64,000 nt of DNA, taken from NCBI GenBank assembly GCA_045606425.1, contig JAZURV010000001.1, positions 6,904-70,903 of the forward strand. The letters run 5' to 3'. How positions within the stretch are numbered: position 1 is the stretch's first letter; the number at the start of each line of letters is the position of its first letter. The notes beneath the pieces were generated by a model. That model saw only the letters and a list, made by a program, of their open reading frames with translations. It did no database searches and had not been told where the DNA came from. Origin of the DNA: Candidatus Enterousia sp. (GTDB lineage Bacteria > Pseudomonadota > Alphaproteobacteria > Rs-D84). This document shows positions 10,341-46,977 of this stretch, piece by piece. The translations under genes were made by a program, and so were the position numbers.

Positions 10341-10401
10341 AAAACGGTGTCAAAAAATGTGGGGTTTTGCCCGGAATTCCGTGGGGTTGCGGTGTATCAA
10401 A

Positions 10402-10413
10402 AAACCTAGGTTT
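10402..10413. promoter_or_regulatory. Perfect 12-bp palindrome AAACCTAGGTTT (copy 1), a candidate operator
   Basis: Seen directly. An identical copy lies ~106 bp downstream, and both are upstream of the Cys-rich secreted protein gene. Confidence 0.35.
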
Positions 10414-10507
10414 ATGGACCACCCTGTTTGGTGAAAAATGAAAAATAAAAAATCCCAGAAATCTGGGGAAAAATTTTTTGAATTTTTTGAAAAATAATGG
10501 TTGCAAT

Positions 10508-10519
10508 AAACCTAGGTTT
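10508..10519. promoter_or_regulatory. Perfect 12-bp palindrome AAACCTAGGTTT (copy 2), a candidate operator
   Basis: Seen directly, about 50 bp upstream of the ATG at 10572. Confidence 0.35.
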
Positions 10520-10571
10520 TTGGTACAGTTCAAACATAGGAATTTTTAACCAGAAAAAGGAAAGGGAAACC

Positions 10572-11627
10572 ATGAAAAAAATCACATTTTTAACATCGAT
10601 GGTTGCATTGACATTTGCAGTACCTGCAATGGCTGTGCCATCGAATACTTCAAGCACATTTCCATCAAACGGAATTATGGAAGAAGACTATACATACCAA
10701 AATCAGGCAACGGTCACAAACCTGAAAGTATCGTCGGGAACCGCAACAACAACCGCGAATTATGCGAACTGTCCGACGGCGTTCCCGAATTCTGACGAAG
10801 GCGCAACCAGTACCGATGAATGTTATACCGCATGTACAGTTTCCGATTTCCCTGCAAATTCGCATATTGCAAGCGTGACTGGTAAAAACTATTCCGGCGC
10901 AAATGTGACCGACACCTGTGCAATCGCATCATGCGACACGGGTTATCATTTGAATCCTGGCAACCCAGACCTGACCACAATAATCGGCGTGACAGAGGCC
11001 GGCACAGCACACGGATACATAAACCACAGCGGTACATACGACGGCGAAGGTTCAACAACGCAACAAACATACGGTATAACAGCGGCAGATACATGGGGAG
11101 TAGATTACGGCAGTGGCAAAGGCCGTATAACAGGACGGGCATTGTGTAGCACACAAGTGGGTGATAACCAGAATTGGAGCTGGACCAACCCAACAACAAA
11201 TACAACAATGACACCTGAATTTGGTGTAGATGGCGCCCAATACTGTTATTGTCAATTGGACAGTTATACATCGCCCAGTGGTGCCAGCCAAAGCTTGTCT
11301 GCCCCTTGGGTGTTCAACTACAACCTCGGTGACGCGGACAATTGCGCGGACGACTGTGCGGGCAACTGTGCGTACACCCTGCGGGACGATTACTCGGACT
11401 TCCTCGCTTTCCGCGCTGCGGTGTTCGGTTCGCTTGGCGCCTCGGTTGCATCATGTGAAGCGAATGAAATCAGCATCACATGGGCGGACGCGTCTGCGGA
11501 AGATATCGCGGCAAACGACGCAGGTTCTGTCACATACGGTGGCGATATCAGAACGCCAAAGAAAGCAGTCCATAAACCAGGTAAAATCTTTACCGGCTGG
11601 ACATTCAACATACCAAGCGGGAATTAA
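10572..11627 (+). CDS. Secreted Cys-rich protein, paralog 1 (Cys-rich modules plus a C-terminal Listeria-Bacteroides-type repeat)
   Basis: Signal peptide MKKITFLTSMVALTFAVPAMA and RBS aaggaaaggg. The C-terminus YGGDIRTPKKAVHKPGKIFTGWTFN resembles the GYTFTGW repeat. It shares modules with 58096-58842 and 63557-64000. Confidence 0.6.
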   Translation: MKKITFLTSMVALTFAVPAMAVPSNTSSTFPSNGIMEEDYTYQNQATVTNLKVSSGTATTTANYANCPTAFPNSDEGATSTDECYTACTVSDFPANSHIASVTGKNYSGANVTDTCAIASCDTGYHLNPGNPDLTTIIGVTEAGTAHGYINHSGTYDGEGSTTQQTYGITAADTWGVDYGSGKGRITGRALCSTQVGDNQNWSWTNPTTNTTMTPEFGVDGAQYCYCQLDSYTSPSGASQSLSAPWVFNYNLGDADNCADDCAGNCAYTLRDDYSDFLAFRAAVFGSLGASVASCEANEISITWADASAEDIAANDAGSVTYGGDIRTPKKAVHKPGKIFTGWTFNIPSGN

Positions 11628-11636
11628 AAAAACCAC

Positions 11637-11860
11637 AAAAACACCGCCCATTCGGGCGGTTGTTTTTTTGCGCATATACCGTAATGATTTTGCTGTACTT
11701 CGTTTCCAAAACCTTGCTTGTATTCCCCGCCCGGGGCGGGGGGACCACGAAGTGGTGGGGAGGGTTGAAAAAAACGAACAATCTGGGGAACAAAAGACCA
11801 CCCCGTCGCTTCGCGCCACCCCTCCACAGGAGGGGAACTTGCTTTCCCGGGTTCTTTTTT
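11637..11860 (+). repeat. ~225-bp GC-rich composite repeat, copy 1 (terminator hairpin, CCCCGCCC-N-GGGCGGGG / CCACGAAGTGG module, TIR-type end)
   Basis: By eye about 90% identical to the reverse complement of 63311-63535. It ends with AAAAGACCACCCCG...CCCCTCCACAGGAGGGGAACTTG, the same end as the right TIR of the queA insertion. Confidence 0.8.
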
Positions 11861-11883
11861 TAGGTCGTCTTAGGAACACTGCA

Positions 11884-12135
11884 GATTCCCCTCCGCCGGA
11901 GGGGAGGGCCCGCAGGGCGGGGAGGGGTCAAATTAAATTCAGTTTATTAAATCTAACAGATTGCCAGTGCGACGATTTGTGCGTGCCAGATTTTTAAGTT
12001 TTTTATTATATGGATTTATCATATTTTCATCTTATTTATGAAAAATAATGAATTCAATAATAAATTTTTATTTGACCCCTCCCCGTCTTGTCGTCACTGC
12101 GTTCCGCCAATCCACCCCTCCGCCGGAGGGGAATT
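11884..12135. mobile_element. MITE-like non-coding element: two inverted GC-rich ends of the CCCCTCC-N3-GGAGGGG family flanking ~135 bp of AT-rich DNA
   Basis: The left end GATTCCCCTCCGCCGGAGGGGAGGGCCCGCAGGGCGGGGAGGGGTCAAAT and the right end ATTTGACCCCTCCCC...CCACCCCTCCGCCGGAGGGGAAT are inverted. There is no ORF inside. Confidence 0.5.
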
Positions 12136-12159
12136 TAGACTGTGCCAAGAACGGTGCAG

Positions 12160-12232
12160 ATTCCCCGCCCCGGGCGGGGGGGACCACGAAGTGGTGGGGA
12201 GGGTTGAAAAAACGAACAATCTGGAATTGTTG
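12160..12232 (+). repeat. Partial copy of the GC-rich repeat (CCCCGCCCCGGGCGGGGGGGACCACGAAGTGGTGGGGAGGGTTGAAAAAACGAACAATCTGG module)
   Basis: Nearly identical to 11724-11787 and to the reverse complement of 63380-63446. Confidence 0.75.
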
Positions 12233-12292
12233 TATATTCTCGTATTCGCCATGCGCTTCGCTCTGGCGTATCCTTCTGGGCGTTTTCACAAC

Positions 12293-12348
12293 ATAAATTA
12301 AAAACCGGCAAAAGCCGGTTTTGAATTTATGGCGCGCCCAGAAGGATT
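12293..12348 (-). repeat. 56-bp duplicate of the tRNA-Arg 3' end (19 nt) plus its downstream terminator
   Basis: ataaattaaaaaccggcaaaagccggttttgaatttatggcgcgcccagaaggatt is identical to 12466-12521. Confidence 0.85.
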
Positions 12349-12502
12349 GTTTCGCTTCGCTTCACTCCCTTGGCTCATTCGCTGTCGCTCACCGGCATAC
12401 TGCCGTCTGCCTTTCGCCTGCGGGTCGAACCCTCTTGTCGGGTTCTCATCCTTTGGTTGCACCAGATAAATTAAAAACCGGCAAAAGCCGGTTTTGAATT
12501 TA

Positions 12503-12579
12503 TGGCGCGCCCAGAAGGATTCGAACCCTCAACCTTCTGATCCGTAGTCAGATGCTCTATCCAATTGAGCCATGGGCGC
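12503..12579 (-). tRNA. tRNA-Arg(ACG)
   Basis: The reverse complement GCGCCCATGGCTCAATTGGATAGAGCATCTGACTACGGATCAGAAGGTTGAGGGTTCGAATCCTTCTGGGCGCGCCA folds as a cloverleaf with anticodon loop CTACGGA. CCA is encoded. Confidence 0.9.
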
Positions 12580-12623
12580 ATATCGGGGTATATTTTATCC
12601 CTTTTTATCGCGATTGCAAGTTT

Positions 12624-13229
12624 TTATTTCGTTTTTTCTAAATTTTTATTAAATAAATTCGCCATCGGATTGTCGTACAGCATGTGAAAATGTTTGCGAC
12701 ATACAGATTTATATTGCGATGCGCCAACTTCGACCTGGGCGCCGTGGCGAATTATATTTCCATTCGCGTCAAATCTGATGTGGTGCGACGCCATCGTACA
12801 GCAGCGCGGAATTTCACACACAGTTTCCATTGGGTGCAATTCGTCGGCTTCTGCCAATAATTTCGCCGCCGCCGGGAACAGATTTCCATTACTGTCCACC
12901 TTTAGCCCATAGCAAAATATTGTGATTTTTGTGGTGTCTGCAATCTGAACCAGTTTATCTATATCGCGCGGGGAAAAGAATTGTACTTCGTCCACCAACA
13001 AAAACTGAATTCCGGATTTAGGCGTATAATTGCCCAGGTTTTTCAGTGCGATTGCCTTTGTTTTTATTCCTATGCGCGAAACGATGTCTGTATCAGAATC
13101 ACGGTTGTCTGTGGCTGGTTTGATTGCCGCCCATTTATTGTCGGTTCGTGTGAAATTGAATGCGTTTATGCCCAACAAAGCCGATTTAGATGATGCCATC
13201 ACGCCATAATAGAAATGCAATTTTGCCAT
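12624..13229 (-). CDS. tdk: Thymidine kinase
   Basis: MAKLHFYYGVMASSKSALL parallels E. coli Tdk LYFYYSAMNAGKST. VDEVQFF, YGLKVDSNGNLFP and the Cys-rich C-terminal ...SVCRKHF are also present. Confidence 0.8.
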   Translation of the reverse strand: MAKLHFYYGVMASSKSALLGINAFNFTRTDNKWAAIKPATDNRDSDTDIVSRIGIKTKAIALKNLGNYTPKSGIQFLLVDEVQFFSPRDIDKLVQIADTTKITIFCYGLKVDSNGNLFPAAAKLLAEADELHPMETVCEIPRCCTMASHHIRFDANGNIIRHGAQVEVGASQYKSVCRKHFHMLYDNPMANLFNKNLEKTK

Positions 13230-24372: not shown

Positions 24373-24466
24373 CATGCAACTTTGTTGCTCTGACCCATCC
24401 CTTCATCCCGCCCGTTAAAACCAAAAACCCACCAAAAGGCGGGTTTTAAAGTTTTAATCTGGCGGA
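24373..24466 (-). repeat. Direct-repeat copy R1a: a copy of the ~90 bp flanking the 3' end of tRNA-Ser, including the first 7 nt of the tRNA 3' end
   Basis: catgcaactttgttgctctgacccatcccttcatcccgcc...aaaaggcgggttttaaagttttaatctggcgga differs at only a few positions from 38828-38923. Confidence 0.85.
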
Positions 24467-24495
24467 CCAAAATTCTGTTGCACAAATTTCCATAC

Positions 24496-25101
24496 CTAAA
24501 TATGCGAATTTTGCTGGATGATGCTTTGCAATACAAAACCATATTTTACGACAGGTGTTTCATTAGACGCAGCCAGAAAATCGTTTTTTGTAATATCGAT
24601 ATCTGTTGATTTATCGGCTGTAATTTTTATTGCATGTACAGAAGTATATTTATCCATTAATAAATCAAGACAATCTTTTGCATTTATACGAACCAATCCG
24701 GCAACTTCGTCAGGTTGAAAATGGAAATCTGTAAATCCGGTCGGTAATTTATTTGCATAAATATGCGCAAATGCACGATCATGCCAATTTTTTTGTGGTT
24801 TGTCTTGCCGCCAAAATACGATATCTAATGCGACAGCATTTGATGCATCGGTGTTAATACCGATTTCTTCGAATATTTCGCGACGGAAAGCATCGCGCAC
24901 TGTTTCCCCCGCCAATACATGCCCAGATGCGGTAGTATATAGCTTACCAGAATCTGCACGAATTTGAAAATATATATTCCCATCATCGTCATACATCCAA
25001 CAATGTACGGTCTTATGCCATAATCCGTTGCGATGAACAGTATCACGAGATTCTGTTCCGATTTTATTCATGTATTCATCATAAATATCAAGATATTCCA
25101 T
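24496..25101 (-). CDS. NUDIX hydrolase
   Basis: Canonical Nudix box GHVLAGETVRDAFRREIFEEIG. Confidence 0.8.
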   Translation of the reverse strand: MEYLDIYDEYMNKIGTESRDTVHRNGLWHKTVHCWMYDDDGNIYFQIRADSGKLYTTASGHVLAGETVRDAFRREIFEEIGINTDASNAVALDIVFWRQDKPQKNWHDRAFAHIYANKLPTGFTDFHFQPDEVAGLVRINAKDCLDLLMDKYTSVHAIKITADKSTDIDITKNDFLAASNETPVVKYGFVLQSIIQQNSHI

Positions 25102-25183
25102 AAAATCTCCTTTGCCTGGTATATGATAATAAAACAGAAAGAAAAATGAAATAAAAAAACACCCTTGGCAATTTTTTTTAAAT

Positions 25184-25222
25184 TTTAATCTGGCGGGTCA
25201 GAAGATATTCGAAAGGTCGGAT
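25184..25222 (-). repeat. Degenerate junction copy: ttttaatctggcgg followed by a tRNA-3'-end-like T-loop fragment
   Basis: The reverse complement cgacctTTCGAATatCTTCtgacccGCCA parallels the tRNA-Ser 3' end caagggTTCGAATccCTTCatctccGCCA. It lies where the AT-rich cluster begins. Confidence 0.45.
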
Positions 25223-25438
25223 TTTTTTGCCACGTGTGCGAATTTCTTCTTTTTATACAAAGTGTATTGCCATGATATTTTTTAACCCCACAAAAGCCAA
25301 AATTTCGAATGTTTCCAGGGATTGTTTTTATAAAAAATATGTTGTACAAATATTGGTGTCTTATAAAAACGTGCATATCGTTTGGCATATAAACAAGAAC
25401 GTCGAAAAGGTAGAATATAGAGCAGTTTTGTTACCGGA

Positions 25439-26281
25439 TTAACAAGATGGTAAAAACAACCAATTATATTCTGGAAATGTTATAGGTTTATCGTATCCCA
25501 AATCACGCAATATTTGTATAACTTCTTCTGCATGACAGGGCAAGTAGTCGTGACAATATGCAGGAAAACTTTCTATGAAGATAGCGGGTTTGTATTTTTT
25601 TATCGTATTTATCATTCCTTTCAAAACTTCCGTTTCAAAGCCCTCAACATCTATTTTAACGAAATCTATCTTTTTCAAATTTAATTTAAAGCTATCCAAA
25701 GATACTATTTTAAAACTAAATTTATTTTTTGTGTTCGATGTTTTTATACTTGTTCCGCCAATATTATCAGATGCCATAAAATCAATTTCTCCGTTCCCGC
25801 AATCGTGCCCCAGACCGACATTATATGTGGTCACAATTTTATCAAGATTATTTATTTTAATGTTGTTTCTCAGCATTCTGAAAGTTTCCTGAACCGGTTC
25901 AAAAGCAATTACACGCTTTGCACCGCCGATTGTTGCAAAAAACACCGAATGATTACCGATATTTGCGCCGATGTCCAATATGGTGGCGTTTTTTGGTAAA
26001 TATTTCAACAGAGTGTAAAGGATGTCTTGCTCAAAAAATTTAGATGTGTTCACGATAGTGCGTTGTATTACGTCCCACGGATACAAAGGGCAATACATTT
26101 TTACAGAATTTGGCATCGTAAAAACATCACCGTTTTGTATCAAAGACATTTTTCTGCAAATCGTATCCGTATCAGAAAAGACAGGAATATATTTTGGTAA
26201 TATACTGTGCTTCCGTTGGAATTTGCGGCGTTTGTCTTTTGATATAATAAAAAAAGATATTGTTTTCAGTATGCCTTTCAT
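25439..26281 (-). CDS. FkbM-family methyltransferase
   Basis: ILDIGANIGNHSVFFA...AFEP...IDFVKIDVEGFE motifs. Confidence 0.75.
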   Translation of the reverse strand: MKGILKTISFFIISKDKRRKFQRKHSILPKYIPVFSDTDTICRKMSLIQNGDVFTMPNSVKMYCPLYPWDVIQRTIVNTSKFFEQDILYTLLKYLPKNATILDIGANIGNHSVFFATIGGAKRVIAFEPVQETFRMLRNNIKINNLDKIVTTYNVGLGHDCGNGEIDFMASDNIGGTSIKTSNTKNKFSFKIVSLDSFKLNLKKIDFVKIDVEGFETEVLKGMINTIKKYKPAIFIESFPAYCHDYLPCHAEEVIQILRDLGYDKPITFPEYNWLFLPSC

Positions 26282-26299
26282 GGTGTCTCCATATTGTGT

Positions 26300-26953
26300 T
26301 TAATATATTTCTATTTTTTTATCCCAATCAATGTCGTGCTTTACAATTTTTGCAGGATTTCCCGCAACAACTGTATTTGTTTCATAGAATGCCTTTGATA
26401 CAACAGCAGAATTTGCGACAACCGAGTTGTTTGGAATTTTTGCCCGTTTTGTCAAGATGGCATTTGCGCCAATCCAACAATGATCGCCGATGGTCAAAGA
26501 ATCCCGTGGAATATTTATAACCTGTTTTGTTTTTTTATCAATCAGCGCATGAAAATCAGACGCCCATATTTGAACGCCACTTGAAATCAAACATTCTTTG
26601 CCAATATTACATTTTGCACCGGAGGATATATAGATGTGTATTTCTTGGATATATGTGTTGTCATCAATACAAAGATAATTACCGTTTCCACGTTCCATCA
26701 ATATATCTGTATCGTTAAACATACAATTTTTGCCCAATTTTATAACATTATCATCGGATAATATCGTGATGTTTATATTTGCGGGGTTTAACGGAAGCCC
26801 CACATAAATTCTGTTATTATTCCCATGTATTTTGATTTTTCCCAATTTGCGAATTTCTTGGCGGCCCAACTTAAAAAGTTTGTCGTCTACAACAGCAGCG
26901 ATAATGTTGTTTTTACCATTGATATCAAATTTATTAAAACCGAATATTGACAT
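26300..26953 (-). CDS. Hexapeptide-repeat (LbH) acetyltransferase
   Basis: IGDHCWIGANAILTKRAKIPNNSVVANSAVVSK...VVAGNPAKIV. Confidence 0.75.
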   Translation of the reverse strand: MSIFGFNKFDINGKNNIIAAVVDDKLFKLGRQEIRKLGKIKIHGNNNRIYVGLPLNPANINITILSDDNVIKLGKNCMFNDTDILMERGNGNYLCIDDNTYIQEIHIYISSGAKCNIGKECLISSGVQIWASDFHALIDKKTKQVINIPRDSLTIGDHCWIGANAILTKRAKIPNNSVVANSAVVSKAFYETNTVVAGNPAKIVKHDIDWDKKIEIY

Positions 26954-27049
26954 ATTGTATTGTATTGTAATTTATGGTGTCGGTTTTTCAAGCTTTTTCT
27001 TGATATTTGATACTTTGTGTACAATCATAATAAAAAAAGAGGTTTTGCA

Positions 27050-27811
27050 ATGATCCCAAAAATTTCCGTTTTTATGCCCGCGTATAATTCAGAAGCATTT
27101 ATAGCAGAGGCCATAGAAAGTATTTTAAATCAAACTTTCAAAGATTTTGAGTTTATAATAATAAATGATGGTTCCACAGATAATACGTGGAATATAATAC
27201 AAAAATATGCAAAACAAGATGACAGAATTCGTGCGTATTCCAGATGTAAAAACAAAGGAATTGTTTGTACGGCAAATGAAGGTTTTGACCTGGCTAGGGG
27301 TGAATATATTGCCCGCATGGACAGCGATGATGTGTCTTTGCCAGAACGTTTTGAAAAACAGATAACATATATGGATGAACATCCGGATGTCGGGCTGCTT
27401 GGGGCATGGACACAATATTTTCCGGGATTTGATATTTCCAAACGGCCAGAGAATATAGATTTGTTTTATCTGTTAAAAGATTGTCCGGTGGACCAACCTG
27501 TTGTAATGATAAGAAAATCAGTCATAGATAAATATAATTTACGATATGATGGAGATTATTTGGCATGTGAAGATCAAGAATTATGGTTCAGATTGATCAA
27601 GGTTTCCAAAATAGCAAACTTGCAAGAATTGTTATTGAAGCACAGATGGCATGGAAATAATATATCAATCAAAATGGGCGATGTTCAACAACAAAATATT
27701 CAAAAAATTCGAAAACAGATTTTAAATTTCATAACAACATCCCCAGAACAGCAAGATGCTATAGCTAAGATTATACCAGAAATGTTTGAGCCCTTGGTAT
27801 TAAAATCTTGA
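27050..27811 (+). CDS. Family 2 glycosyltransferase
   Basis: ISVFMPAYNSEAFIAEAIESILNQTFKDFEFIIINDGSTD and ARMDSDD motifs. Confidence 0.85.
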   Translation: MIPKISVFMPAYNSEAFIAEAIESILNQTFKDFEFIIINDGSTDNTWNIIQKYAKQDDRIRAYSRCKNKGIVCTANEGFDLARGEYIARMDSDDVSLPERFEKQITYMDEHPDVGLLGAWTQYFPGFDISKRPENIDLFYLLKDCPVDQPVVMIRKSVIDKYNLRYDGDYLACEDQELWFRLIKVSKIANLQELLLKHRWHGNNISIKMGDVQQQNIQKIRKQILNFITTSPEQQDAIAKIIPEMFEPLVLKS

Positions 27812-27857
27812 CAACTATATATTTTGTGCTATATGTATAAAAACAAATGGCAAGAAC

Positions 27858-29309
27858 ATGAAATTTGAAGATGGCACCACTTTGATACAATTATCTGATA
27901 ATGTGTACTGTTTAAATAATGCTTATCGTCAGTCGCAAATTTTTGGTGACCGCACATTAAAAGCTGTTTTTGAAAATTTATCCAAAAATAATTATGTAAA
28001 TTCTGATAGTTACAATATACTGTTACATAATAATTTTTTAACAAATCAAAGACCAGATGTATACAAGCAAAAATTATTGCAAGATTCTGTTAAATATAGT
28101 ATACAACCAAAATTTAATTTGTTGCGAATTTTGCTGACTGATGTTTGTAATTTAAATTGTGATTATTGCAAAGTTATAAAATTAATAGATGCGCCGTCGG
28201 CGAAACCAACACAACCAGAACGTTTAGAAAAGGCTATAAAGTTTTTCTTTGAAAATTCTACTGCGGCAGAACCAAAAATAATTCATATTACTGGTGGTGA
28301 ACCCACGTTATTTTTTGACAGTATAAGACAAATAATACAATTCAAAAATACTTATGCACGTCCAAATGAAAATTGTTGGATTGTTGTTGGAACAAACGCG
28401 ATTGCTATAACTCCGGAAAAAGCACGTTTTTTCGCTGATAATAACATGAAATGTATTGTGTCAATGGACGGACCAGAACAAGTACATAATATTTTACGAA
28501 AAAATCATGCTGGTCAGGGAACATGGTCACAGGTCGATAAAAATATTAAATTGTTGCAATCTTTTGGTGTAGAAATATCTATTTCTGCTGTGATGGGAAA
28601 ACATACAATTTATCAGGCCGATGAAAATATCTCTTTTTTGATAAATGAATATAATCCAACTGGCCTAGGTATTAACTTTATGAAGCCACCGACTACAAAT
28701 TCTAGCGATTATAAATATTTAATTGATGAAAAATTATACGCAGAAACAATGTATAGATTACATCAAAAATATCGTACGCGTGGCGTGTTTTTTGAGCTTA
28801 TTTTCAGACACTTAGAGCCTTTTGTAAAACAAAATTTCAGATTTCATGATTGTGGGGCAGCGGCCAGCCAAAATTTGAATATAGATGCCAAGGGCAATAT
28901 CGGACCCTGTAAGTCATTTTTGTTGTGGAACAAGATGGCAATGAAAGATATAAATATCCAAGAATATAGCAATATTGTATCTGAAAATTGGGAAAGACGC
29001 TCACCAATTCATTTCGAACCATGTCAAAATTGTTCATGTATTGGTATATGTGGAAATGGGTGTGCATATGATGCTTTTATCAATAACCGAGATATGTTGG
29101 CCATAGATACCAGGGGCTGTAAATATGTAAAATGTTTTTATGATTTGTTTTTAAAAGATTTATATGAAATATCGTGCAAAACACATGAGGGGCAAAATAT
29201 TTTTGTGCCATCTCAAGCGGACAGACAACAAATGTTAGGAAATGTAAAGGAAATTCAAAATTCTTTAAGTTATTCAATTGGACACCAAACGAAACATTTT
29301 CAAAAATGA
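27858..29309 (+). CDS. Radical SAM/SPASM-domain enzyme with a ~95-aa N-terminal extension (possible PqqD-like peptide-recognition element)
   Basis: CNLNCDYC (CX3CX2C at residues 97-104), ITGGEPTL, and the SPASM-type Cys clusters CGAAASQNLNIDAKGNIGPC and CQNCSCIGICGNGCAYDA. The N-terminal YCLNNAYRQSQIFGDRTLKAVFENL resembles an RRE. Confidence 0.75.
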   Translation: MKFEDGTTLIQLSDNVYCLNNAYRQSQIFGDRTLKAVFENLSKNNYVNSDSYNILLHNNFLTNQRPDVYKQKLLQDSVKYSIQPKFNLLRILLTDVCNLNCDYCKVIKLIDAPSAKPTQPERLEKAIKFFFENSTAAEPKIIHITGGEPTLFFDSIRQIIQFKNTYARPNENCWIVVGTNAIAITPEKARFFADNNMKCIVSMDGPEQVHNILRKNHAGQGTWSQVDKNIKLLQSFGVEISISAVMGKHTIYQADENISFLINEYNPTGLGINFMKPPTTNSSDYKYLIDEKLYAETMYRLHQKYRTRGVFFELIFRHLEPFVKQNFRFHDCGAAASQNLNIDAKGNIGPCKSFLLWNKMAMKDINIQEYSNIVSENWERRSPIHFEPCQNCSCIGICGNGCAYDAFINNRDMLAIDTRGCKYVKCFYDLFLKDLYEISCKTHEGQNIFVPSQADRQQMLGNVKEIQNSLSYSIGHQTKHFQK

Positions 29310-29908
29310 TAAAAAGAAGTACTTTGTTTTCTGTTTTAATAACTGGATACAGTATTTTAAATCGACGCAAAAACTTTGTGCATAATTTTAGCCATAGTAA
29401 ACGTGTTTTTTATAATAATATATGTATTTTGGGGGTGCGTGCGATTCCTTTCCTTCGCGTTTTATTATTGACTTCGATATGGCATGATGTTGGACAAAGT
29501 GATTTTAAACAACAGGCTAAATATCATCATATATATTCTGCCAGATTATTCAAATATTTTACCAAAGAAAATAAATACACAGATATCGTTGTGAATATAA
29601 TTTTATGTCACAGAAATCGTGGTGCAAATGCGCAATATTGCCCAAAAACATTATTACAACAGGCCTTTTTTGATGCTGATAAATTGGACGTGTTAAATAT
29701 ACCACGGTCAAAAAAATTGATAAAAATGTATTCGCGTGGTTTTTCATGTGGTGAATTTAATATCAAAGATACAATTCGTTTTTGGGAAGATTTTATCACA
29801 AATGGTGAAAATATTTTATTTTTAGAAAAATCTAAGAAATTATTCTGTCAAAGAAAAAATGCTTTCGTAAAATTTATATCCGAAATCAAAGGAAAATATA
29901 ATGTCTGA
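29306..29908 (+). CDS. HD-domain phosphohydrolase
   Basis: An H...HD...H...D pattern (IWHDVGQ, YHHIYSA, ILCHRNRG, FFDADKLD). ATGA overlap with the radical SAM gene. Confidence 0.55.
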   Translation: MIKRSTLFSVLITGYSILNRRKNFVHNFSHSKRVFYNNICILGVRAIPFLRVLLLTSIWHDVGQSDFKQQAKYHHIYSARLFKYFTKENKYTDIVVNIILCHRNRGANAQYCPKTLLQQAFFDADKLDVLNIPRSKKLIKMYSRGFSCGEFNIKDTIRFWEDFITNGENILFLEKSKKLFCQRKNAFVKFISEIKGKYNV

Positions 29909-31268
29909 TATGGAGAAAGTAGAAATTACAAATATGGATGTTTTTTTTGATTATATTAAAAAACATTTTTTTACCGGCATCATAGATCAGCACTATTTAT
30001 TAAACAACACGCCGAACGGTGTATTGAATTCCATTTTAGAATCGTTAAAACAAGAGTTGTCGCCTGATAATGTAAAACAAATAAAAAATATATTGTTTTA
30101 CAAATGGATTTATACAAATGGTATGAAATCTTTGTTGCTGGACCAACAATCAGATTATATTGTAAAAACGGATGCAGGATATGAATTTGTGCCAAGGCAA
30201 GAACTTTACGGACATTTATTACAAATCAAAGATTATTTTGATTATATGATAGATTTTTATATTAAAAAAAATATGTCTTATAAATTGAAATTGGCCCTGT
30301 TTACATCGGAAACATTTGAATCTGCGTTTCGCAAGGCCAATATTGAATTTGAAAAACGGGTAAAAAGAAATTCTGCGTTGGGCATAGATAATGAAAAAAA
30401 TATTTTAATGCATCTTGATAATGAATATAAGCTTGTAAAATTAAACACAGTGTATGATTTGGATTATGAAGGGTTATGTATCGGGCACTGTATTGGCGAG
30501 GGTATCTTGGACAAAGAAATAAATGATAAAAAATCAACAATAACAGTTTGTTCTTTGCGTAAAGATATGTTGATGAAAGAACGCATATCTGGAAAAAACA
30601 TAATTCGGTCAATACCTTTTGCTTCAATTGTCATAGATCGTTTTGAAAAACGTCTAAACGGAAAATTATATGGCAATGTAATTTCCATTGAAGGACATAT
30701 CGCAGGCACAGTAAGATATTATCTTAAAAACAAATTGGAAAAACAAGATGCATGGAAAGGCAGATTTCCACCATACGTTCATGCCACGCCAATATCAAAC
30801 GAAGAAATTATATTTCGTGATACAGAATTACAACAAACACTGATAAATTTATTTATGCAAAACGAATTGGTAATATGTGGCGAAAGAAAATATACGCCAT
30901 GTTTGACCAAAGATTATAATATTGGTATGCCAACAACATATTCTGTACGCGTTAAAAACCAAGATGATTTAATTCGCGTCGCCAGTCACGGATTTCATCA
31001 TATTGTTGTCCCGTCATATGATATTTTTGTGTCAACAATTCAACCGATTAAGGTGGAAACTTTTGATAACAAAAATACAATAGATATAACAAAAGCTGGA
31101 ACATACGATTTAACAGAATTGCAAAATTTAAATACAATAAATGTTTTTGCGAATTGTGTGACAATATATTGTTATAATTGTAATAATTTACAACGTGTGA
31201 ATCGTTCGCCGGATACAAATGTGTTGATGGAGCGTAATAAATATAATATTATACAAAATATTCGTTAA
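29901..31268 (+). CDS. Hypothetical protein with a PcfJ-like central motif
   Basis: LDYEGLCIGHCIGEGIL ... ITVCSLR resembles the EG..M.HCV ... I.SiR core of PcfJ-like (PF14284) proteins, from memory. It overlaps the HD gene by 8 nt. Confidence 0.35.
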   Translation: MSDMEKVEITNMDVFFDYIKKHFFTGIIDQHYLLNNTPNGVLNSILESLKQELSPDNVKQIKNILFYKWIYTNGMKSLLLDQQSDYIVKTDAGYEFVPRQELYGHLLQIKDYFDYMIDFYIKKNMSYKLKLALFTSETFESAFRKANIEFEKRVKRNSALGIDNEKNILMHLDNEYKLVKLNTVYDLDYEGLCIGHCIGEGILDKEINDKKSTITVCSLRKDMLMKERISGKNIIRSIPFASIVIDRFEKRLNGKLYGNVISIEGHIAGTVRYYLKNKLEKQDAWKGRFPPYVHATPISNEEIIFRDTELQQTLINLFMQNELVICGERKYTPCLTKDYNIGMPTTYSVRVKNQDDLIRVASHGFHHIVVPSYDIFVSTIQPIKVETFDNKNTIDITKAGTYDLTELQNLNTINVFANCVTIYCYNCNNLQRVNRSPDTNVLMERNKYNIIQNIR

Positions 31269-31279
31269 GGGATGTTTCA

Positions 31280-32149
31280 ATGAAAATATACAAAGATGGA
31301 TGGTTAAAAACCGACGGCAAACACAAGATTTATTATATGCAATTGGGCAATCCAAATGGGATTCCGGTTTTGTCTTTTCATGCTGGTCCTGGTGATTGTT
31401 CATGGGCGGGATTTTATGATTTTTTGGACGAAACAAAGTATAATATTATAACATTCGATCAGCGTGGTTGTGGAAAATCTGAACCGTTCGGTGAAATCGC
31501 GGATAATACAACCGACAAAATTTTGACCGATGCAAAGGAGTTGTTGGATTTTATAGGGATTCGCGAAAAATGTATTTTATTCGGTGGATCATGGGGCTCT
31601 GCATTGGCGTTGTCTTTTGGCGCCAGATATCCAGACACAACAAAATCATTGGTGTTGTCAAATGTTCTGTTGGGGCGTCATCACGATTTAAAAAAACTTA
31701 TGTGTGATTTAAAAATTTTTAAGCCATTATCAAATTACAATGTTGATGAAAGTAATATATTTTTGAAAATAAAACATGCAATACAAAATAATGACATTGA
31801 ATTTATATCAAAATACAATGATTATGAAATATACAAATACACTTTTCATAAAAATAACGGATTAAAAACAAATTTAGCTGGTAAAGATTTTTTGCAAAAA
31901 CGTCTATATTGTCATTTTTTATGTAATAATTTATTTTTGCCGGATAATGGTATTGTGGATGAATTGACCGCGCTATCGGGAAAGCCGATTTATTTGGTGC
32001 ACAATAAATACGACCCAATATGTAATATAGAACAGGCGCATCTTTTAAAAAAACTGTTGCCACAAACCGAATTGGTCGTGTTAAATAAACGTGGACATGG
32101 GGGCGATTTTCAAATTGACACAATTAAAAAATTCTTTAAAAAAGCTTAA
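31280..32149 (+). CDS. Prolyl aminopeptidase-type alpha/beta hydrolase (S33)
   Basis: FHAGPG, FDQRGCGKSEP and GGSWGSALAL motifs. Confidence 0.75.
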   Translation: MKIYKDGWLKTDGKHKIYYMQLGNPNGIPVLSFHAGPGDCSWAGFYDFLDETKYNIITFDQRGCGKSEPFGEIADNTTDKILTDAKELLDFIGIREKCILFGGSWGSALALSFGARYPDTTKSLVLSNVLLGRHHDLKKLMCDLKIFKPLSNYNVDESNIFLKIKHAIQNNDIEFISKYNDYEIYKYTFHKNNGLKTNLAGKDFLQKRLYCHFLCNNLFLPDNGIVDELTALSGKPIYLVHNKYDPICNIEQAHLLKKLLPQTELVVLNKRGHGGDFQIDTIKKFFKKA

Positions 32150-33341
32150 TATATGCCTGGTTTACCCTGGATATCCACCATACGAACGGGAGTCTGGGGG
32201 AATTGCATCTTATGTCCAAGAAAATGTAAGGTTTTTAACCGCCATGGGGCATAATGTTGTTGTTATTTCGCGTGCACCGGATATATCGCATGTTATAGAA
32301 ACAAATACCGATAAAACAAAAATAATATATTTGCCTCATTTTCTGCCGCGCATCTGCAAATTTTTTACCCCGCTAAAATTTAATAAATATGGTGCATATT
32401 TTTATTCATACAAAGCATATAAACAATTAAAAAAAATAGAAAAAGAAAATCATATTCACTTTGATGTCATCGAAACCAGCGATTGGGGCGGCGAAGGTTA
32501 TTTCTTTGTAAAAAAATTCCAAGACAGGACAATTATAAAATGTGACACCCCCAGTTTTATATCGGAATCATACAACCCCAACAATCCAGCGTATCTAAGT
32601 TCTTTTGTAAAGAAATTGGAACAAAGAACATTATTGAATGCGAAAAACATTGTCACAAACAGCAAAATTTTGATGCAAAAAATCTGTGCTGTGTTGCACA
32701 AAGATTTACCATTCACATTGGTACAATTGTCAATAAAAACAACACCAATTAAAAAAACAAAATACACCAATAAATTTTCAAAAAACAATCCAATGAAAAT
32801 AATATTTTCTGGTCGCATAGAAGAACGCAAAGGGATTTTTGGTTTAATAGATGCTATAAAACAACTTCGAAAAAAAGGATTGTATATAGAACTTCATTGC
32901 TTTGGTGCGACAACGCCAATGAAACATACGGACAGTATAACACTATTAAAAAACGAGGGGTATAGTTGGCTCCATTTTTATGGACAAATTCCCAGAGACC
33001 AAATAATGAAAGAATATAAAAATTACGATTTGTGTGTTGTGCCGTCAGTGTTTGATAGTTTTTGTCTGACAGCATTAGAAGCGATATTTTCAAAAATTCC
33101 AACTATAGTTTCCGATACAACAGGCATTTCAGATTTAATATCGGATAAATTTCTTGTCTTCTCTTTTCCCATAGATATTATATCAAAAATAAATGATGTG
33201 TATTTTAATTACGCATCCTATGCAAGAAAGACAGATTTGGTATTGAATGATTTACTTTGTAAAACCGATAGGGCAAATATCGATCGTATGACATATTATT
33301 TTAAAATCGCCAAACAAAATAATTTAAAATCAAAGTGTTAA
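32091..33341 (+). CDS. GT4-family (GT-B) glycosyltransferase; start uncertain
   Basis: ICLVYPGYPP...GGIASYV N-terminus and C-terminal PSVFDSFCLTALEAIFSKIPTIVSD. The ORF start overlaps the preceding gene. Confidence 0.7.
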   Translation: MDMGAIFKLTQLKNSLKKLNICLVYPGYPPYERESGGIASYVQENVRFLTAMGHNVVVISRAPDISHVIETNTDKTKIIYLPHFLPRICKFFTPLKFNKYGAYFYSYKAYKQLKKIEKENHIHFDVIETSDWGGEGYFFVKKFQDRTIIKCDTPSFISESYNPNNPAYLSSFVKKLEQRTLLNAKNIVTNSKILMQKICAVLHKDLPFTLVQLSIKTTPIKKTKYTNKFSKNNPMKIIFSGRIEERKGIFGLIDAIKQLRKKGLYIELHCFGATTPMKHTDSITLLKNEGYSWLHFYGQIPRDQIMKEYKNYDLCVVPSVFDSFCLTALEAIFSKIPTIVSDTTGISDLISDKFLVFSFPIDIISKINDVYFNYASYARKTDLVLNDLLCKTDRANIDRMTYYFKIAKQNNLKSKC

Positions 33342-33605
33342 CCATAACTTGTTTGATAAAAGCACAAAAACCTGTCTGTGTTTAAAAATCGAAAATATGC
33401 CAATTATTTCTATCTTAAGATATTTGTTTCAATATCTTATGCTTTAACATATTTGTATCACTCATATATAATCTTTTAGTTGCCGAACCCTAAAAAAAAC
33501 ATATCTATTCAGGAGAAAACCGGCATTGGGATTTTGGGCAAGGTATATAAATTGCGAGAATTTGGGTTGGTTGGGTGCAAGTGGCGATATACATTGGAAA
33601 CATCA

Positions 33606-33688
33606 TGGGTAAAATCTGCCAGAAACGGGGCGAAAAAGAACATCCCGCGGAATTACCACGGGATGTCTAAACTTAGTGGCGGAGATGA
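33606..33688. repeat. 83-bp perfect direct repeat, copy A (contains tRNA-Ser 3'-end sequence on the minus strand; tRNA identity continues to ~33697)
   Basis: tgggtaaaatctgccagaaacggggcgaaaaagaacatcccgcggaattaccacgggatgtctaaacttagtggcggagatga is identical to 38651-38733. Confidence 0.9.
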
Positions 33689-33900
33689 AGGGATTCCATC
33701 GGCTTTCGCCTACGGGGCAACCGTAACGACTATGAGTAAACGAAAACGAGTGTTTACGAAGTTTGAGTGCTAACGAATGCCGCGTAGGACAAAGTCCGAG
33801 GGATTTTGGTGCGTTTGCACTTCCAAAATCTACTTGTTGTCGAACCCTGCAACTGCGTTGCAAACGATTCAAATCTGCCAATATCTCCGCCAAAAATTAG
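33689..33900. other. ~210-bp non-coding segment bounded by inverted copies of the tRNA-Ser 3' core (TGGCGGAGAT ... ATCTCCGCCA), with several local hairpins
   Basis: Hairpins GTAAAC/GTTTAC, GATTTTGG/CCAAAATC and GCAAC/GTTGC, followed by the terminator-like ccccgcaaaagcgggg at 33901-33916. Confidence 0.4.
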
Positions 33901-34160
33901 CCCCGCAAAAGCGGGGTAAATTCCTGGCGGAGTTGTAAGAAAGAACGGTATTAGATATGATAACTACAGGGTATTTACAGGGAATTTTTACGAAAAACAA
34001 CCAGTTTTACCATAAGTCGTGCTGCTGTAACGCTGTAAAATCGCCACTTTTACAAAAAATTCCCTACTTAAAAAGCAGGGAATTACTTCGCATTAACAGG
34101 GAATTTTGTTTTGCAATTTTGTAAAAATCACAGTTTTGTAAAATGTGTTTAACAAAAATG

Positions 34161-34189
34161 TTGATTTTGTTGTTTTTGTAAAGTATAAT
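34161..34189 (+). promoter_or_regulatory. Sigma-70-like promoter of the ATPase-protease operon (TTGATT-17-TATAAT)
   Basis: Hexamers read directly. RBS aaaaagggg follows, then the ATG at 34215. Confidence 0.5.
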
Positions 34190-34214
34190 GTTATTAAACA
34201 AAAAGGGGCTTTAT

Positions 34215-35564
34215 ATGGCATCTGAAACACTTATATCACGTCCAGAATATACAAACAAGCTGAAAAACTGGCTTGGTCAAACCGACCTTGTAAAAATAGT
34301 TACAGGGGTTCGTCGTTGTGGAAAATCTAAATTATTAGAATTGTTTGGTTTGGATCTTTTGTTTGGTAACGTTGCCACTAGTGACCATATACTATCTATA
34401 AACTTGGAAGATCCAGTTTTGACAGGCAAAATAGGTTTGAAACTGAATTCTGATGGTTTGCTGCAAGATTATCAAACGTTATTGGATTATATATTATCAA
34501 AAGTCAAAGATGATAAAACATACTATGTTTTCATAGACGAAGTTCAACTTGTAGAAAATTGGCAGGTAGTAGCTAATGGATTACGTATGCGTGGCAACAT
34601 AGATGTATATTTAACTGGATCTAATGCATATATGTTTTCCGGCGATATAGCAAATTCTTTTGGTGGACGTTATGTTGAAATAAAAATGCAACCGCTATCT
34701 TTTGCAGAATATTTCAGCTTTTATAGTCAGAGTTTTAATCATCAAATAAAGAAACGTGAAGATTTAGAAAAACATCGTAATCCTTACGCTATATATGAAG
34801 ATTATATCCATGAAAGTGGCTTTCCACAGGTGCAAAAGTTGGTGCACATGGATGATAAACAGGTTATAACAGATTATCTGATGGATACCGTGTTCCGAAA
34901 TGCTATACAGAAAGACATAGTAAAACGTTTTAATATAGCTAGCGACAATAAATTAGATGTCGTGACAAGATATTTGTTTGATAATATAGGGCGTGATACT
35001 TCTGTGCGTAATATAGAACGCTGTTTAAAAGATGCGGGTTATAATATATCTGCACCAACAATAGACACATACATAAAAGGATTATTGGATAGTTTCTTGA
35101 TGTATAAATGCGAAAGATACGATGTCAAAGGTAAAAAAATATTAAGTGGTGATGCAAAATATTATGTGGTCGATGCAGGTTTGCGTTACGCATTATTGGG
35201 CGACAAAGATACAGATGCTGGTCGTATACTGGAAAATGTTGTGTATCTTGAATTGATACGTCGTGGATATAACGTGTCTGTGGGTAAAATACAAACACAA
35301 GTAAGAAACGAAGAAGGCAAGGCTGAACGCAAAACAATAGAAGTCGATTTCGTGGCAACCAAGCCAGGTGGACAGGTAGAATATTATCAAGTTGCGTGGG
35401 GTGTTTTGAATAATGAAGATGTTGCAAAACGCGAATATGCATCATTGGAACAAATAAAAGATAATTATCCAAAATACTTGTTAACTATGGATTATGGTTC
35501 TGGCGAACAAAACGGCATAAAACGTCTAAATGTTTTGGAATGGTTGTTAAATATGGAACATTAA
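34215..35564 (+). CDS. AAA-family ATPase (AAA_14 plus DUF4143 architecture)
   Basis: Walker A GVRRCGKS and Walker B YVFIDEVQ. The C-terminal IEVDFVATKPGG.VEYYQVAW resembles the nuclease-fold-like DUF4143 tail. Confidence 0.7.
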   Translation: MASETLISRPEYTNKLKNWLGQTDLVKIVTGVRRCGKSKLLELFGLDLLFGNVATSDHILSINLEDPVLTGKIGLKLNSDGLLQDYQTLLDYILSKVKDDKTYYVFIDEVQLVENWQVVANGLRMRGNIDVYLTGSNAYMFSGDIANSFGGRYVEIKMQPLSFAEYFSFYSQSFNHQIKKREDLEKHRNPYAIYEDYIHESGFPQVQKLVHMDDKQVITDYLMDTVFRNAIQKDIVKRFNIASDNKLDVVTRYLFDNIGRDTSVRNIERCLKDAGYNISAPTIDTYIKGLLDSFLMYKCERYDVKGKKILSGDAKYYVVDAGLRYALLGDKDTDAGRILENVVYLELIRRGYNVSVGKIQTQVRNEEGKAERKTIEVDFVATKPGGQVEYYQVAWGVLNNEDVAKREYASLEQIKDNYPKYLLTMDYGSGEQNGIKRLNVLEWLLNMEH

Positions 35565-36530
35565 ATGTCTGAAGGATTAATTTACTGTATAAGCCCTGTA
35601 TTATACCATGATGTATCTACTGAATATTCTTATAGAAGAGGAACGGCTTTTTATACGCAGTATTCAGAACGATTGTTTGCCATAACGGCCAGTCATTGTA
35701 TAGAGAAAAATGATATTAATAATTTGTTTTTAGGTTTAAATCCAAGTAAAAGACGGAATTATAAAATTCCATTAAACAAACAGATTAATGTTAATTACAC
35801 AGATGGTGCAGAAATTGATTCTGATATCAGAATATTTGAGATAGATCAAATATCTATTATGAAAAATTTAGCAGAAAGAACCCAAATTAGATCATATGAT
35901 GACATGGTTAAAGAAATTAGATGTACTCCTTTAGCAAAACGATTATTAAAAAAATATAAAAATCAACCAGAAAAATTTCGTGAAGCATTGATGAAAACAA
36001 CAATGTTTAAAACTATACACGGAAGACAACTTGATGAAATTGAAGATTCGCTTGAAAAAGCTGACACGTCTTTGGCGGATATAAAAACATTGGAATTAAC
36101 AAAAGATATTATTCTACAACCAGGAGATCCTTTTGCTGCTGTTGGTTTTCCAACGGAGCCATCTGGGGACAAACTTAAAATGACAGATGATGGAAAAATT
36201 ACGGGTTGGCATTTTTCATATGCGGAATGTGATCTTACATATATTGAAACACATCAAAAATGTGGTGATTATGTTTTTTCTTACGATAAATCTTTAGATT
36301 TAAATGGTTTTAGCGGTGGACCAGTAGTAGGCGCAAATAATAAAGTTATAGGTGTTTTAAGTTGGGGAGAAAAAGAGAAAGGGCTGGTATATGTTACGCC
36401 AAGTGTGAATGTAATAAAAGCTATTGATAGTATAGTCAAAAATACGCCAGATGAATTTTCTTTATGCACAGATATACCATCTGGTATAGAACAAGAATTG
36501 TTAAAATTGATTTATAAAAAAATTGATTAG
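35565..36530 (+). CDS. Trypsin-like (S1/chymotrypsin-fold) serine protease with a ~100-aa helical insertion
   Basis: His motif ITASHC, Asp candidate SDIRIFEID and Ser motif GFSGGPV. The start codon abuts the ATPase stop (TAAATG). Confidence 0.65.
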   Translation: MSEGLIYCISPVLYHDVSTEYSYRRGTAFYTQYSERLFAITASHCIEKNDINNLFLGLNPSKRRNYKIPLNKQINVNYTDGAEIDSDIRIFEIDQISIMKNLAERTQIRSYDDMVKEIRCTPLAKRLLKKYKNQPEKFREALMKTTMFKTIHGRQLDEIEDSLEKADTSLADIKTLELTKDIILQPGDPFAAVGFPTEPSGDKLKMTDDGKITGWHFSYAECDLTYIETHQKCGDYVFSYDKSLDLNGFSGGPVVGANNKVIGVLSWGEKEKGLVYVTPSVNVIKAIDSIVKNTPDEFSLCTDIPSGIEQELLKLIYKKID

Positions 36531-36644
36531 CAGACAGTACACGTTTTCTGCGGCAAAATCATTTTCAACAAAAAAATGAATATAAAAAATATTTTTGTAC
36601 TTTCTTGCACCGAATCGTGATTTTTGCTATTTTTATTACAAAGG

Positions 36645-46963: not shown

Positions 46964-46977
46964 AAAAAGGATACACA

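Follow-up and report, generated by a model that had tools for sequence, protein, structure and literature searches.

A tandem array of double-hairpin elements beside tRNA-Arg in Candidatus Enterousia and its relation to a DUF559 nuclease cassette in queA

Introduction

Short GC-rich palindromes that are arranged as inverted pairs and form long hairpins are known from the REPIN/REP-RAYT systems, in which repetitive extragenic palindromic (REP) sequences occur as doublets (REPINs), many copies are gene-less, few copies with the same palindromes carry the nuclease gene, this gene resides at a conserved locus and no target-site duplication is found (Bertels and Rainey 2011, PMC3116915). The present study concerns an array of GC-rich hairpin modules at positions 11637–12292 of a window of Candidatus Enterousia DNA (the window being the whole stretch of 64 kb that was analysed), which resembles these systems in all of these points, the conserved locus being here the interval between uvrB and tsaE in relatives, and a cassette within queA of the same window that has the same ends and encodes a DUF559 (Vsr-like) nuclease. 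With a probability of roughly 0.55 the array is a tandem pile-up of two complete non-autonomous elements and one solo end that are related to the queA cassette, by whose nuclease they may have been mobilised. The partner protein in REPIN systems is an HUH Y1 transposase, the REP-associated Y1 transposase (RAYT), whereas the partner here is a DUF559/Vsr-like PD-(D/E)XK nuclease; moreover, the ends are double hairpins of about 49 nt and copies are found in frame in genes. The gene seen flanked by modules encodes DUF559, and no RAYT was found linked to the elements or among the 40 open reading frames (ORFs) of the window that were scanned, so the likeness to REPINs, proposed when the DNA was first read, is, as far as these 64 kb show, architectural only.

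The Rickettsia palindromic elements (RPEs) likewise inhabit reduced alphaproteobacterial genomes, are palindromic with a length of about 100–150 bp, lie in many cases in frame in tolerant loops of housekeeping genes and have no known target-site duplication or transposase (PMC10969869); Candidatus Enterousia belongs to the order Rs-D84, with genomes of less than 1 Mb (PMC12306168). In contrast, RPEs have no sequence similarity to the elements described here and no known coding partner, whereas here a nuclease cassette shares the ends. An RPE-like core, GTCATTGCGAG (a core motif and not the full consensus), has 0 matches in the window, and the same motif neighbours some modules in loci of metagenome-assembled genomes (MAGs).

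[quoted passage not shown] In the strict sense, however, the term MITE, which the sequence-only reading had used, does not fit, as inspection of 15 two-ended elements revealed no target-site duplication and the coding relative encodes a Vsr-like nuclease and no DDE transposase; in addition, the ends are conserved as structure and not only as sequence. The insertion sequences IS200/IS605 and their palindrome-associated derivatives share with the elements here the end hairpins, a single-strand logic and the lack of target-site duplication, but their hairpins are subterminal, act on one strand and are not mutual inverted repeats, and they require the Y1 transposase TnpA, none being linked here. 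The GC clusters and double-hairpin elements of yeast and Allomyces mitochondria are also GC-rich hairpins in AT-rich genomes, lie in intergenic arrays and inside genes as well as at the borders of in-frame mobile endonuclease ORFs, and are recombination hot spots; they differ in being organellar, in their unrelated sequences and in having LAGLIDADG or GIY-YIG endonucleases and not DUF559.

Vsr-like nucleases of the 'EDxHD' type act as homing endonucleases and can sit inside genes (I-Bth0305I; PMC3239194, PMC2677866). These selfish genes inside host genes share the fold of the cassette protein (Foldseek probability 1.0 to 3R3P) and have hairpins upstream of the start codon. They reside, however, in group I introns, in inteins or between the split-intein halves of phage genes and carry NUMOD DNA-binding domains, whereas the cassette here is translated through, is bounded by inverted double hairpins and has gene-less derivatives. 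Residence as a homing gene in an intron, an intein or as a separate interrupting ORF was rejected for the queA cassette, which is read through in frame and contains no Rfam intron. In sum, the architecture is closest to REPIN-RAYT and the behaviour closest to RPEs, while the features that define either of them, or classical MITEs, are lacking; a literature search found no description of a double-hairpin DUF559 element.

The array and the modules of the window

The array occupies the region between two convergent units, the Cys-rich ORF at 10497–11627 (+) and tRNA-Arg(ACG) at 12503–12579 (−). The features of this region and the related elements elsewhere in the window are the following.

10497–11627, plus strand: gene of a Cys-rich secreted/surface protein, ORF376, 376 codons; the array lies 3' of the gene
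11638–11670, plus strand: ORF376's intrinsic terminator, ACCGCCC-ATTC-GGGCGGT and then a T run, outside the repeat family
11722–11840, no strand assigned: Element A, 119 bp; left end a CCCCGCCC variant at 11722–11769 (+), right end canonical at 11792–11840 (−)
11883–12136, no strand assigned: Element B, 254 bp; ends at 11883–11931 (+) and 12074–12136 (−), interior AT-rich
12158–12225, plus strand: solo left end C, a CCCCGCCC variant with 92% identity to the left end of Element A
12284–12348, minus strand: duplicate of the last 19 nt of tRNA-Arg with terminator, 95% identical to 12457–12521
12503–12579, minus strand: tRNA-Arg(ACG)
48635–49080, plus strand: DUF559 cassette of 446 bp in queA (47857–49344); canonical ends at 48635–48681 (left) and 49034–49080 (right)
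63330–63449, no strand assigned: Element A', 120 bp, a paralogous copy of Element A in inverted orientation, within the tail of a surface-protein gene paralog that lies upstream of rpsD

A covariance model was built on 49 aligned ends, of which related genomes supplied 46 and the window 3. It detected nine full modules in the 64 kb and nothing else above noise, and these form four convergent pairs and one solo end.

11722–11769, plus strand: module, 27.1 bits
11792–11840, minus strand: module, 72.1 bits
11883–11931, plus strand: module, 31.4 bits
12074–12136, minus strand: module, 28.3 bits
12158–12208, plus strand: module, 26.1 bits
48635–48681, plus strand: module, 67.2 bits
49034–49080, minus strand: module, 63.0 bits
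63330–63376, plus strand: module, 60.2 bits
63399–63449, minus strand: module, 18.5 bits

As one model scores them all, the non-coding copies and the queA cassette do share their ends, as had been proposed. Most other elements of the sequence-only reading were also recovered. The genome is AT-rich and the stretch GC-rich (GC 0.52 at 11–12 kb versus 0.29–0.46 in nearly all other 1-kb segments), and the six copies of CCCCTCC-N3-GGAGGGG are present, five exact (11819, 11888, 12115, 48640, 49059) and one with 1 mismatch (63335), as are three CCCGCCC-N-GGGCGGG hairpins (11726, 12164, 63431); chance accounts for 0 copies of the former in 100 shuffles and 0 of the latter are expected in shuffles, and the modules are a true repeat family. 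The element of about 250 bp noted at 11884–12135 has inverted ends and an AT-rich interior without a Pfam-supported ORF, and the partial module at 12160–12232 repeats 11725–11787 with 92% identity. Single modules fold as predicted, and the array as a whole folds far better than shuffled sequence (z = −7.9). In contrast, the array is not nested, since the order of ends given by the covariance model is →← →← →, that is, tandem. Similarly, the statement that the stretch of about 650 bp is built from modules applies to only about 440 of its 656 bp, the remainder including the terminator at 11638–11670 and, at 12226–12292, ancestral intergenic DNA that is shared with relatives.

No ORF with Pfam family support was found in the array. 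The inverted repeat of Element B reaches outward to 11866–12153 according to the repeat finder, and its interior matches neither the cassette nor any of the compared loci and holds no Pfam-supported ORF, so that it is not a recognisable DUF559 remnant. Solo end C forms the exact right edge of the block that has no counterpart in relatives. Behind the CCCCGCCC hairpin a G/C homopolymer of 6, 7 and 9 bases is seen in the three copies (11737–11743, 12172–12179, 63421–63429), the longest being the C9 run already noted at the CCCCGCCC end of Element A'; such a tract within the module is prone to slippage.

On the tRNA side of the array the 3' end of tRNA-Arg (GCCCAGAAGGAT...) is present in three partial copies within 12268–12521. 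Two of them include the full terminator and constitute a 65-nt direct repeat, 173 nt apart, the 108-nt insert between them holding the T-arm-like GGGTTCGACCC, and the third is the fragment GCCCAGAAGGAT at about 12268–12279; relatives have one copy fewer. This suggests repeated integration, excision or duplication at tRNA-Arg, and the duplicated tRNA end marks an integration or rearrangement hot spot. The spot taken by the array, between two convergent transcription units and adjoining a tRNA gene, is a permissive one. An origin of the array as cargo of an island integrated at tRNA-Arg was considered and rejected, as the partial tRNA copies all lie on the tRNA side, 173 nt apart, and do not bracket the array.

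Structure and constraint of the end module

From outside to inside the end module of about 49 nt consists of AAGTT, the first hairpin CCCCTCC-N3-GGAGGGG, TG, a second hairpin and CGGGGTGGTC(TTT). Hairpin 1 has a stem of 7 bp and, variants included, the consensus TTCCCC(T/G)CC-N3-GG(A/C)GGGG, whereas the stem of hairpin 2, 4–5 bp long, is free in sequence and keeps its pairing; the third piece of the module is the inner motif GGGG(T/A)GG. Three subtypes of ends can be told apart by the inner motif, GGGGTGGTCTTT, GGGGAGGGTTGAAA and GGGGAGGGGTCAAAT, and the end subtype of Element A, GGGGTGGTCTTTTG, is that of the resident queA cassette.

Hairpin 2 covaries, with compensatory changes in three of five pairs and 95% of cells paired. 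The covariation amounts to 0.225 versus 0.056 in shuffles (reached by 0 of 500), and sliding the partners of hairpin 2 lowers pairing to 49–63%; hairpin 1 was fixed by the search pattern and is therefore uninformative on covariation. The loop of hairpin 2 is GNA in 35 of 65 ends and its closing pair C-G in 56 of 65. C-GNA-G triloops form unusually stable mini-hairpins as DNA, which favours a role of the modules as single-stranded or cruciform DNA. Furthermore, synonymous divergence is 0.00–0.20 within modules versus 0.46–0.69 in adjacent codons (a comparison of only 13–16 codons), indicating that the ends are kept as nucleic acid. No Rfam family corresponds to the units: the gathering score is reached by tRNAs alone, and nothing credible was found at E <= 10 in 11500–12700.

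The DUF559 cassette and its link to the ends

The insert in queA matches PF04480 with E = 1e-25 (90.1 bits versus a cutoff of 20.6) inside PF02547, and the queA reading frame passes through the cassette without stops. Its DUF559 part aligns with 3HRL (E = 1.7e-13) including the D...ExD...H residues, and the D, ExD and H columns are invariant across homologs. A model derived from 36 homologs has a predicted local distance difference test score of 91, and its best matches in the PDB by Foldseek are 3HRL and 3R3P, the catalytic domain of I-Bth0305I (probability 1.0), Vsr being weaker. The ratio of nonsynonymous to synonymous divergence of the DUF559 part is 0.06–0.15 between species (queA 0.02–0.07), which indicates that it is kept as a protein; judged by sequence and model, the protein looks functional. 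Foldseek also detected a domain of this fold in several mitochondrial ribosomal proteins from apicomplexans and ciliates (Toxoplasma 9i05 chains, Tetrahymena 6z1p; probability 0.75–1.0). For the queA insert a group I intron was rejected, since there is no Rfam ribozyme, the frame reads through and the bounds are inverted repeats; an intein was rejected on the latter two grounds and on the absence of intein motifs by eye, a formal test not having been made.

The same ends are also found at DUF559 genes elsewhere, including Chlorobaculum, so the relation is not particular to queA. Homologs with 67–71% identity reside between uvrB and tsaE in relatives, and the terminus of 76 of 120 DUF559 homologs sampled from many phyla encodes a translated hairpin (PPxEG, PSxGG or PLxxRG). 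In L207 (Chlorobaculum) and L211 (an NCBI assembly) DUF559 is part of type I restriction operons, where it separates an hsdS-like gene from hsdR (L207:1455–2000, L211:1440–2140), with near-identical ends, ATTCCCCTCCTTTGGAGGGGTGCCCGAAGGGCGGGGTGGTC on the left and GACCACCCCGCCCTGACGGGCACCCCTCCAGAGGAGGGGAAT on the right, and both loci carry tandem copies of the terminal hairpin as well. The junction of the 3' end of the ORF with the right-end module is conserved from Alphaproteobacteria to Chlorobi, and a short two-ended element in L211 keeps the last ~27 nt of the ORF, which identifies it as a deletion derivative. In L207 and L211 hairpin 1 pairs GGAGG, the Shine-Dalgarno core, with CCUCC 5–11 nt upstream of the DUF559 start; hairpin 1 may thus double as a translational control element.

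Two loci of relatives with a stand-alone DUF559 gene at the conserved uvrB-tsaE position (L199:2900–3400, L203:3000–3520) have a right-end-like module and, 18–21 nt further on, a left end. The annotated ATG falls within the hairpin-2 loop, and the stop codon has no module on its 3' side. Back-to-back right and left ends are also seen in queA of L078, and the spacers of such ends share a GTGCAGA-like motif with junctions in the array of the window. One possibility is that this arrangement represents a tandem or circle junction.

Other work connects DUF559 to DNA damage and repeats, as a DUF559 protein damages DNA in vivo (PMC12907096) and among genes with invertible repeats on their flanks DUF559 genes are overrepresented (PMC9881135). 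A search of plasmid proteins returned only distant DUF559 homologs (<60% identity) with uninformative annotation.

Distribution of the family and alleles of the insertion sites

The modules are by no means confined to the window, as the exact 19-base end AAGTTCCCCTCC-N3-GGAGGGG was found in more than 116 loci of a genome collection. Those listed are mostly from MAGs of gut, rumen or termite Alphaproteobacteria (Candidatus Enterousia, 'Rickettsiales', RUG and UBA bins), with several loci per MAG, and in them the module is conserved beyond the fixed search pattern. Among the nucleotide matches listed for the window, the closest are also such MAGs (L046 with 84% identity, L068 with 91% over 746 nt), and arrays that resemble that of the window occur in Candidatus Enterousia too. 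Strict two-ended elements in MAG loci measure 105–134, 322–339 or 437–444 bp. In 2.9 million viral contigs there was 1 match to the end, which indicates that the family is not phage-borne. No target consensus was found. In six MAG loci (L028, L040, L060, L090, L103, L112) GTCATTGCGAGC-type motifs, absent from the window, directly adjoin many double-hairpin ends; we take these motifs to be reminiscent of Rickettsia palindromic elements.

In Bacteroidota the hairpin is accompanied by a different downstream motif. In L038, L052 and L095 CCCCTCC-N3-GGAGGGG is followed by TTAGGGGAGGC and lies in frame in ORFs that resemble leucyl-, valyl- or isoleucyl-tRNA synthetases (identified by eye, from motifs only), so that hairpins of this sort seem to have colonised housekeeping genes in frame outside Alphaproteobacteria as well. 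A further in-frame hairpin insertion is present in a mutS-like ORF in L043.

Presence and absence vary between relatives and between strains. None of the 44 loci with thymidine kinase and tRNA-Arg that were compared from relatives (about 260 kb) contains the hairpin. In L123 and L124 the terminator of tRNA-Arg is followed almost directly by the macB-like gene (window position 10344), so that window 10345–12229, comprising the surface-protein gene and the array, is an indel. The alleles at queA are more varied still.

Site 1 (after ASRMLVV), empty: window, L046, L104
Site 1, solo end: L091
Site 1, right and left ends placed back to back: L078
Site 1, DUF559 cassette: L035 and proteins P0019, P0020, P0024, P0026
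Third site (after ARFDA), solo module: L035
Site 2, empty: L078, L104
Site 2, one hairpin of 27 nt, in frame: L067
Site 2, cassette type a: window, L046, L085
Site 2, cassette type b, placed at a different nucleotide and with the same module read in another frame: L035, L022
Site 2, distant DUF559 (36% identity): L091

This variety points to several independent events in the same tolerant loops. In-frame insertion with retention of the host protein is seen at queA sites 1, 1b and 2, in the mutS-like gene and in other genes, and the presence of three different DUF559 lineages in the same queA loop is, as far as sequences can tell, an indirect hint of homing into an empty allele.

The composite unit and the surface-protein genes

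The sequence-only reading had described a composite unit of 225 bp at 11637–11860 that recurs inverted near 63.3 kb. The recurrence was confirmed (63310–63534, 80–91% identity by the repeat finder), but it did not arise from an insertion of its own: two paralogous surface-protein genes have this 3' tail in common. More precisely, the homology runs on into coding sequence, 11535–11605 being equivalent to 63930–64000 inverted with 90% identity, so that the copy at 63.3 kb represents a segmental duplication or gene conversion and not a second insertion. Both copies consist of a terminator, a spacer of about 55 nt, the element and a T-rich tail downstream of the paralogous genes. The strain contigs L001 and L002 (95% identity) lack Element A' and have another gene allele and another terminator upstream of rpsD, and their homology to the window resumes at about 63300. 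Exact-protein look-ups gave no match for the QueA fusion, the thymidine kinase or the MacB-like permease, and RpsD alone led to the strain contigs.

ORF376 has a signal-peptide-like start at an internal MKKITF and no Pfam match. Its Cys-rich secreted protein family ends in GDIRTPxKAVHKPGKIFTGWTF and has members at 10497–11627, 63558–64000 (window edge), L001:1–870 and L002:3–761. Strains that are 95% identical elsewhere differ in the Cys-rich protein allele upstream of rpsD; by its sequence the family looks like a hypervariable surface-protein cassette.

Other features of the window

The 3' end of tRNA-Ser(GGA) with 91 nt downstream (38833–38923) is directly repeated at 24376–24466 with 97% identity, a partial third copy being found at 25175–25203, and an 83-nt repeat (33606–33688 and 38651–38733) is 100% identical. 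The DNA between the tRNA-Ser repeats (window 24376–39007) has a GC content of 0.29–0.34 and encodes glycosyltransferases, a radical SAM enzyme, an FkbM methyltransferase, an AAA_14/DUF4143 ATPase, a trypsin-like protease and a ParB_N-fused DNA methylase; from these sequence features 24376–39007 looks like an island integrated at tRNA-Ser. Immediately upstream of queA, at 46964–47471, two small ORFs of 78 and 74 aa, both beginning MKYTEKEVN..., are tandem duplicates of each other with 78–89% DNA identity.

Discussion

How could elements of this kind have spread? In the model that we favour, the modules serve as cis sites for a selfish cassette, and its DUF559 nuclease (Vsr-like, PD-(D/E)XK) would recognise the hairpin ends when they are extruded or single-stranded, and nick or cut there. 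Copies would then spread via repair or recombination; as no DDE transposition would be involved, the lack of target-site duplications would be accounted for. Internal deletion of cassettes could give rise to the short gene-less elements and recombination between palindromic ends to solo hairpins. Being GC-rich, the modules have no stop codons, so that copies would survive in frame in tolerant gene loops, as in queA. The data show that the elements are one family, that the structure of the ends is constrained, that the distribution is wide, that presence/absence alleles exist, that one deletion derivative retains a remnant of the ORF and that DUF559 evolves under purifying selection; both the role of DUF559 as mobilising enzyme and the mode of insertion are what we infer, and the array itself probably has no host function beyond its incidental strong secondary structure.

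A wider proposal, to which we give somewhat less than even odds, is that the family constitutes an undescribed class of mobile elements present in several phyla, with a DUF559 gene bounded by double-hairpin ends (CCCCTCC-N3-GGAGGGG, a covarying GNA-triloop hairpin, GGGGTGGTC) on which the nuclease acts, thereby propagating itself, gene-less derivatives and in-frame insertions. Held equally tentatively, the in-frame targets of such a class would be queA and mutS in Alphaproteobacteria, with related hairpins in aminoacyl-tRNA synthetases of Bacteroidota.

Several observations weigh against the array being a pile-up of elements related to, and possibly moved by, the DUF559 cassette. The ends of Element A are of two different subtypes, so that it may be two abutting solo ends, and the second copy of the composite unit arose via gene-tail duplication. 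The low synonymous divergence in modules could reflect gene conversion among copies and not selection. DUF559 lies within 8 kb in only seven of the 116 module loci listed, five of the seven being the queA site, and the cassettes of this lineage occupy few and partly conserved places (queA, uvrB-tsaE), which fits vertical inheritance as well as mobility. A clean filled/empty pair at nucleotide resolution was not found among the loci compared, and the exact ends, like the absence of target-site duplications, are therefore judged by inspection. In addition, metagenome assemblies are broken and can be joined wrongly by such repeats, and contig L119 ends at the repeat. We also know of no DUF559 protein with activity on hairpin DNA.

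The rival that survives best, although we regard it as unlikely, is that the modules spread alone or via another enzyme, such as a Y1 transposase of the IS200/IS605 type (a RAYT) encoded at another place in the genome, with DUF559 as a passenger, or that they are control and boundary parts of a DUF559 homing gene, namely a hairpin that sequesters the ribosome-binding site and a terminator, which were left or copied by recombination without nuclease action. In 94% of the module-bearing loci listed no DUF559 gene is nearby, and the symmetric inverted-pair architecture is that of REPINs. A part in expression is consistent with the GGAGG/CCUCC pairing of hairpin 1 ahead of the DUF559 start in L207 and L211 and with the ATG in the hairpin-2 loop of L199 and L203, and hairpins that sequester the ribosome-binding site are known in free-standing Vsr-like homing genes (PMC2677866). 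Such a part is, however, not obvious for the right end, whose junction with the 3' end of the ORF is conserved between Alphaproteobacteria and Chlorobi. Likewise, the cassette and the short elements of one genome have the same end subtype, and the 40 scanned ORFs include no Y1 transposase, which is weak evidence as it covers 64 kb only.

Alternatively, the modules could be REP-like structures, comparable to bacterial interspersed mosaic elements, that are maintained by selection and serve the host as terminators or insulators, as stabilisers of mRNA 3' ends or as protein-binding sites, the array forming a barrier between the convergent surface-protein gene and tRNA-Arg. The position of the array exactly between convergent units, its strong folding, the conservation of module sequence at synonymous sites and the T-rich tail after one module would agree with this explanation, which we consider improbable nonetheless: both flanking genes already have canonical terminators, most modules lack a T run, either orientation is found, as is in-frame placement within the coding regions of queA, the mutS-like gene and aminoacyl-tRNA synthetases, and close relatives do without modules at the same locus.

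A local segmental duplication or an assembly artefact, that is, duplicated gene tails or chimeric metagenome joins and nothing more, has very little left to recommend it. The 225-bp unit and its inverted copy are indeed tails of paralogous genes, and the same-species contig L119 ends at the tRNA-Arg repeat, but duplication of gene tails does not account for Elements B and C or the queA cassette, and for the family as a whole this explanation is already contradicted by the same end module in more than 116 independent assemblies and inside conserved genes. Hardly more credible are small structured RNA genes or riboswitch-like elements, for which the covarying hairpin and the strong folding would speak, since Rfam gives no match even at E <= 10, the near-palindromic modules fold alike on both strands and occur in either orientation and inside ORFs, and C-GNA-G triloops favour DNA hairpins. 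Sites resembling the attC sites of integrons were rejected, there being neither an integrase nor an ORF array.

Significance

The array itself is an ordinary-looking graveyard of repeats, and its value lies in giving entry to the family of DUF559 double-hairpin cassettes. For the Rs-D84/Enterousia lineage such repeats matter in practice, as they fragment metagenome assemblies and make chimeric-looking proteins, such as the QueA-DUF559 fusion, that annotators have to recognise, and they may also explain why DUF559 genes were flagged as inversion targets.

DUF559 is a very common 'endonuclease domain-containing protein' without an established function, and the link to the ends gives it a testable candidate role as a nuclease acting on hairpin ends, and offers a candidate enzyme for a class of palindromic repeats that has so far been without one. 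To our knowledge the in-frame RPEs of reduced-genome Alphaproteobacteria have been without a known mobilising activity for 25 years, and here bacteria of related lifestyle show RPE-like behaviour together with a coding partner. If the proposed class of mobile elements is real, it would parallel REPIN-RAYT in function while being based on a PD-(D/E)XK nuclease, and it would provide a candidate answer to the question of how in-frame palindromic elements of the RPE type move.

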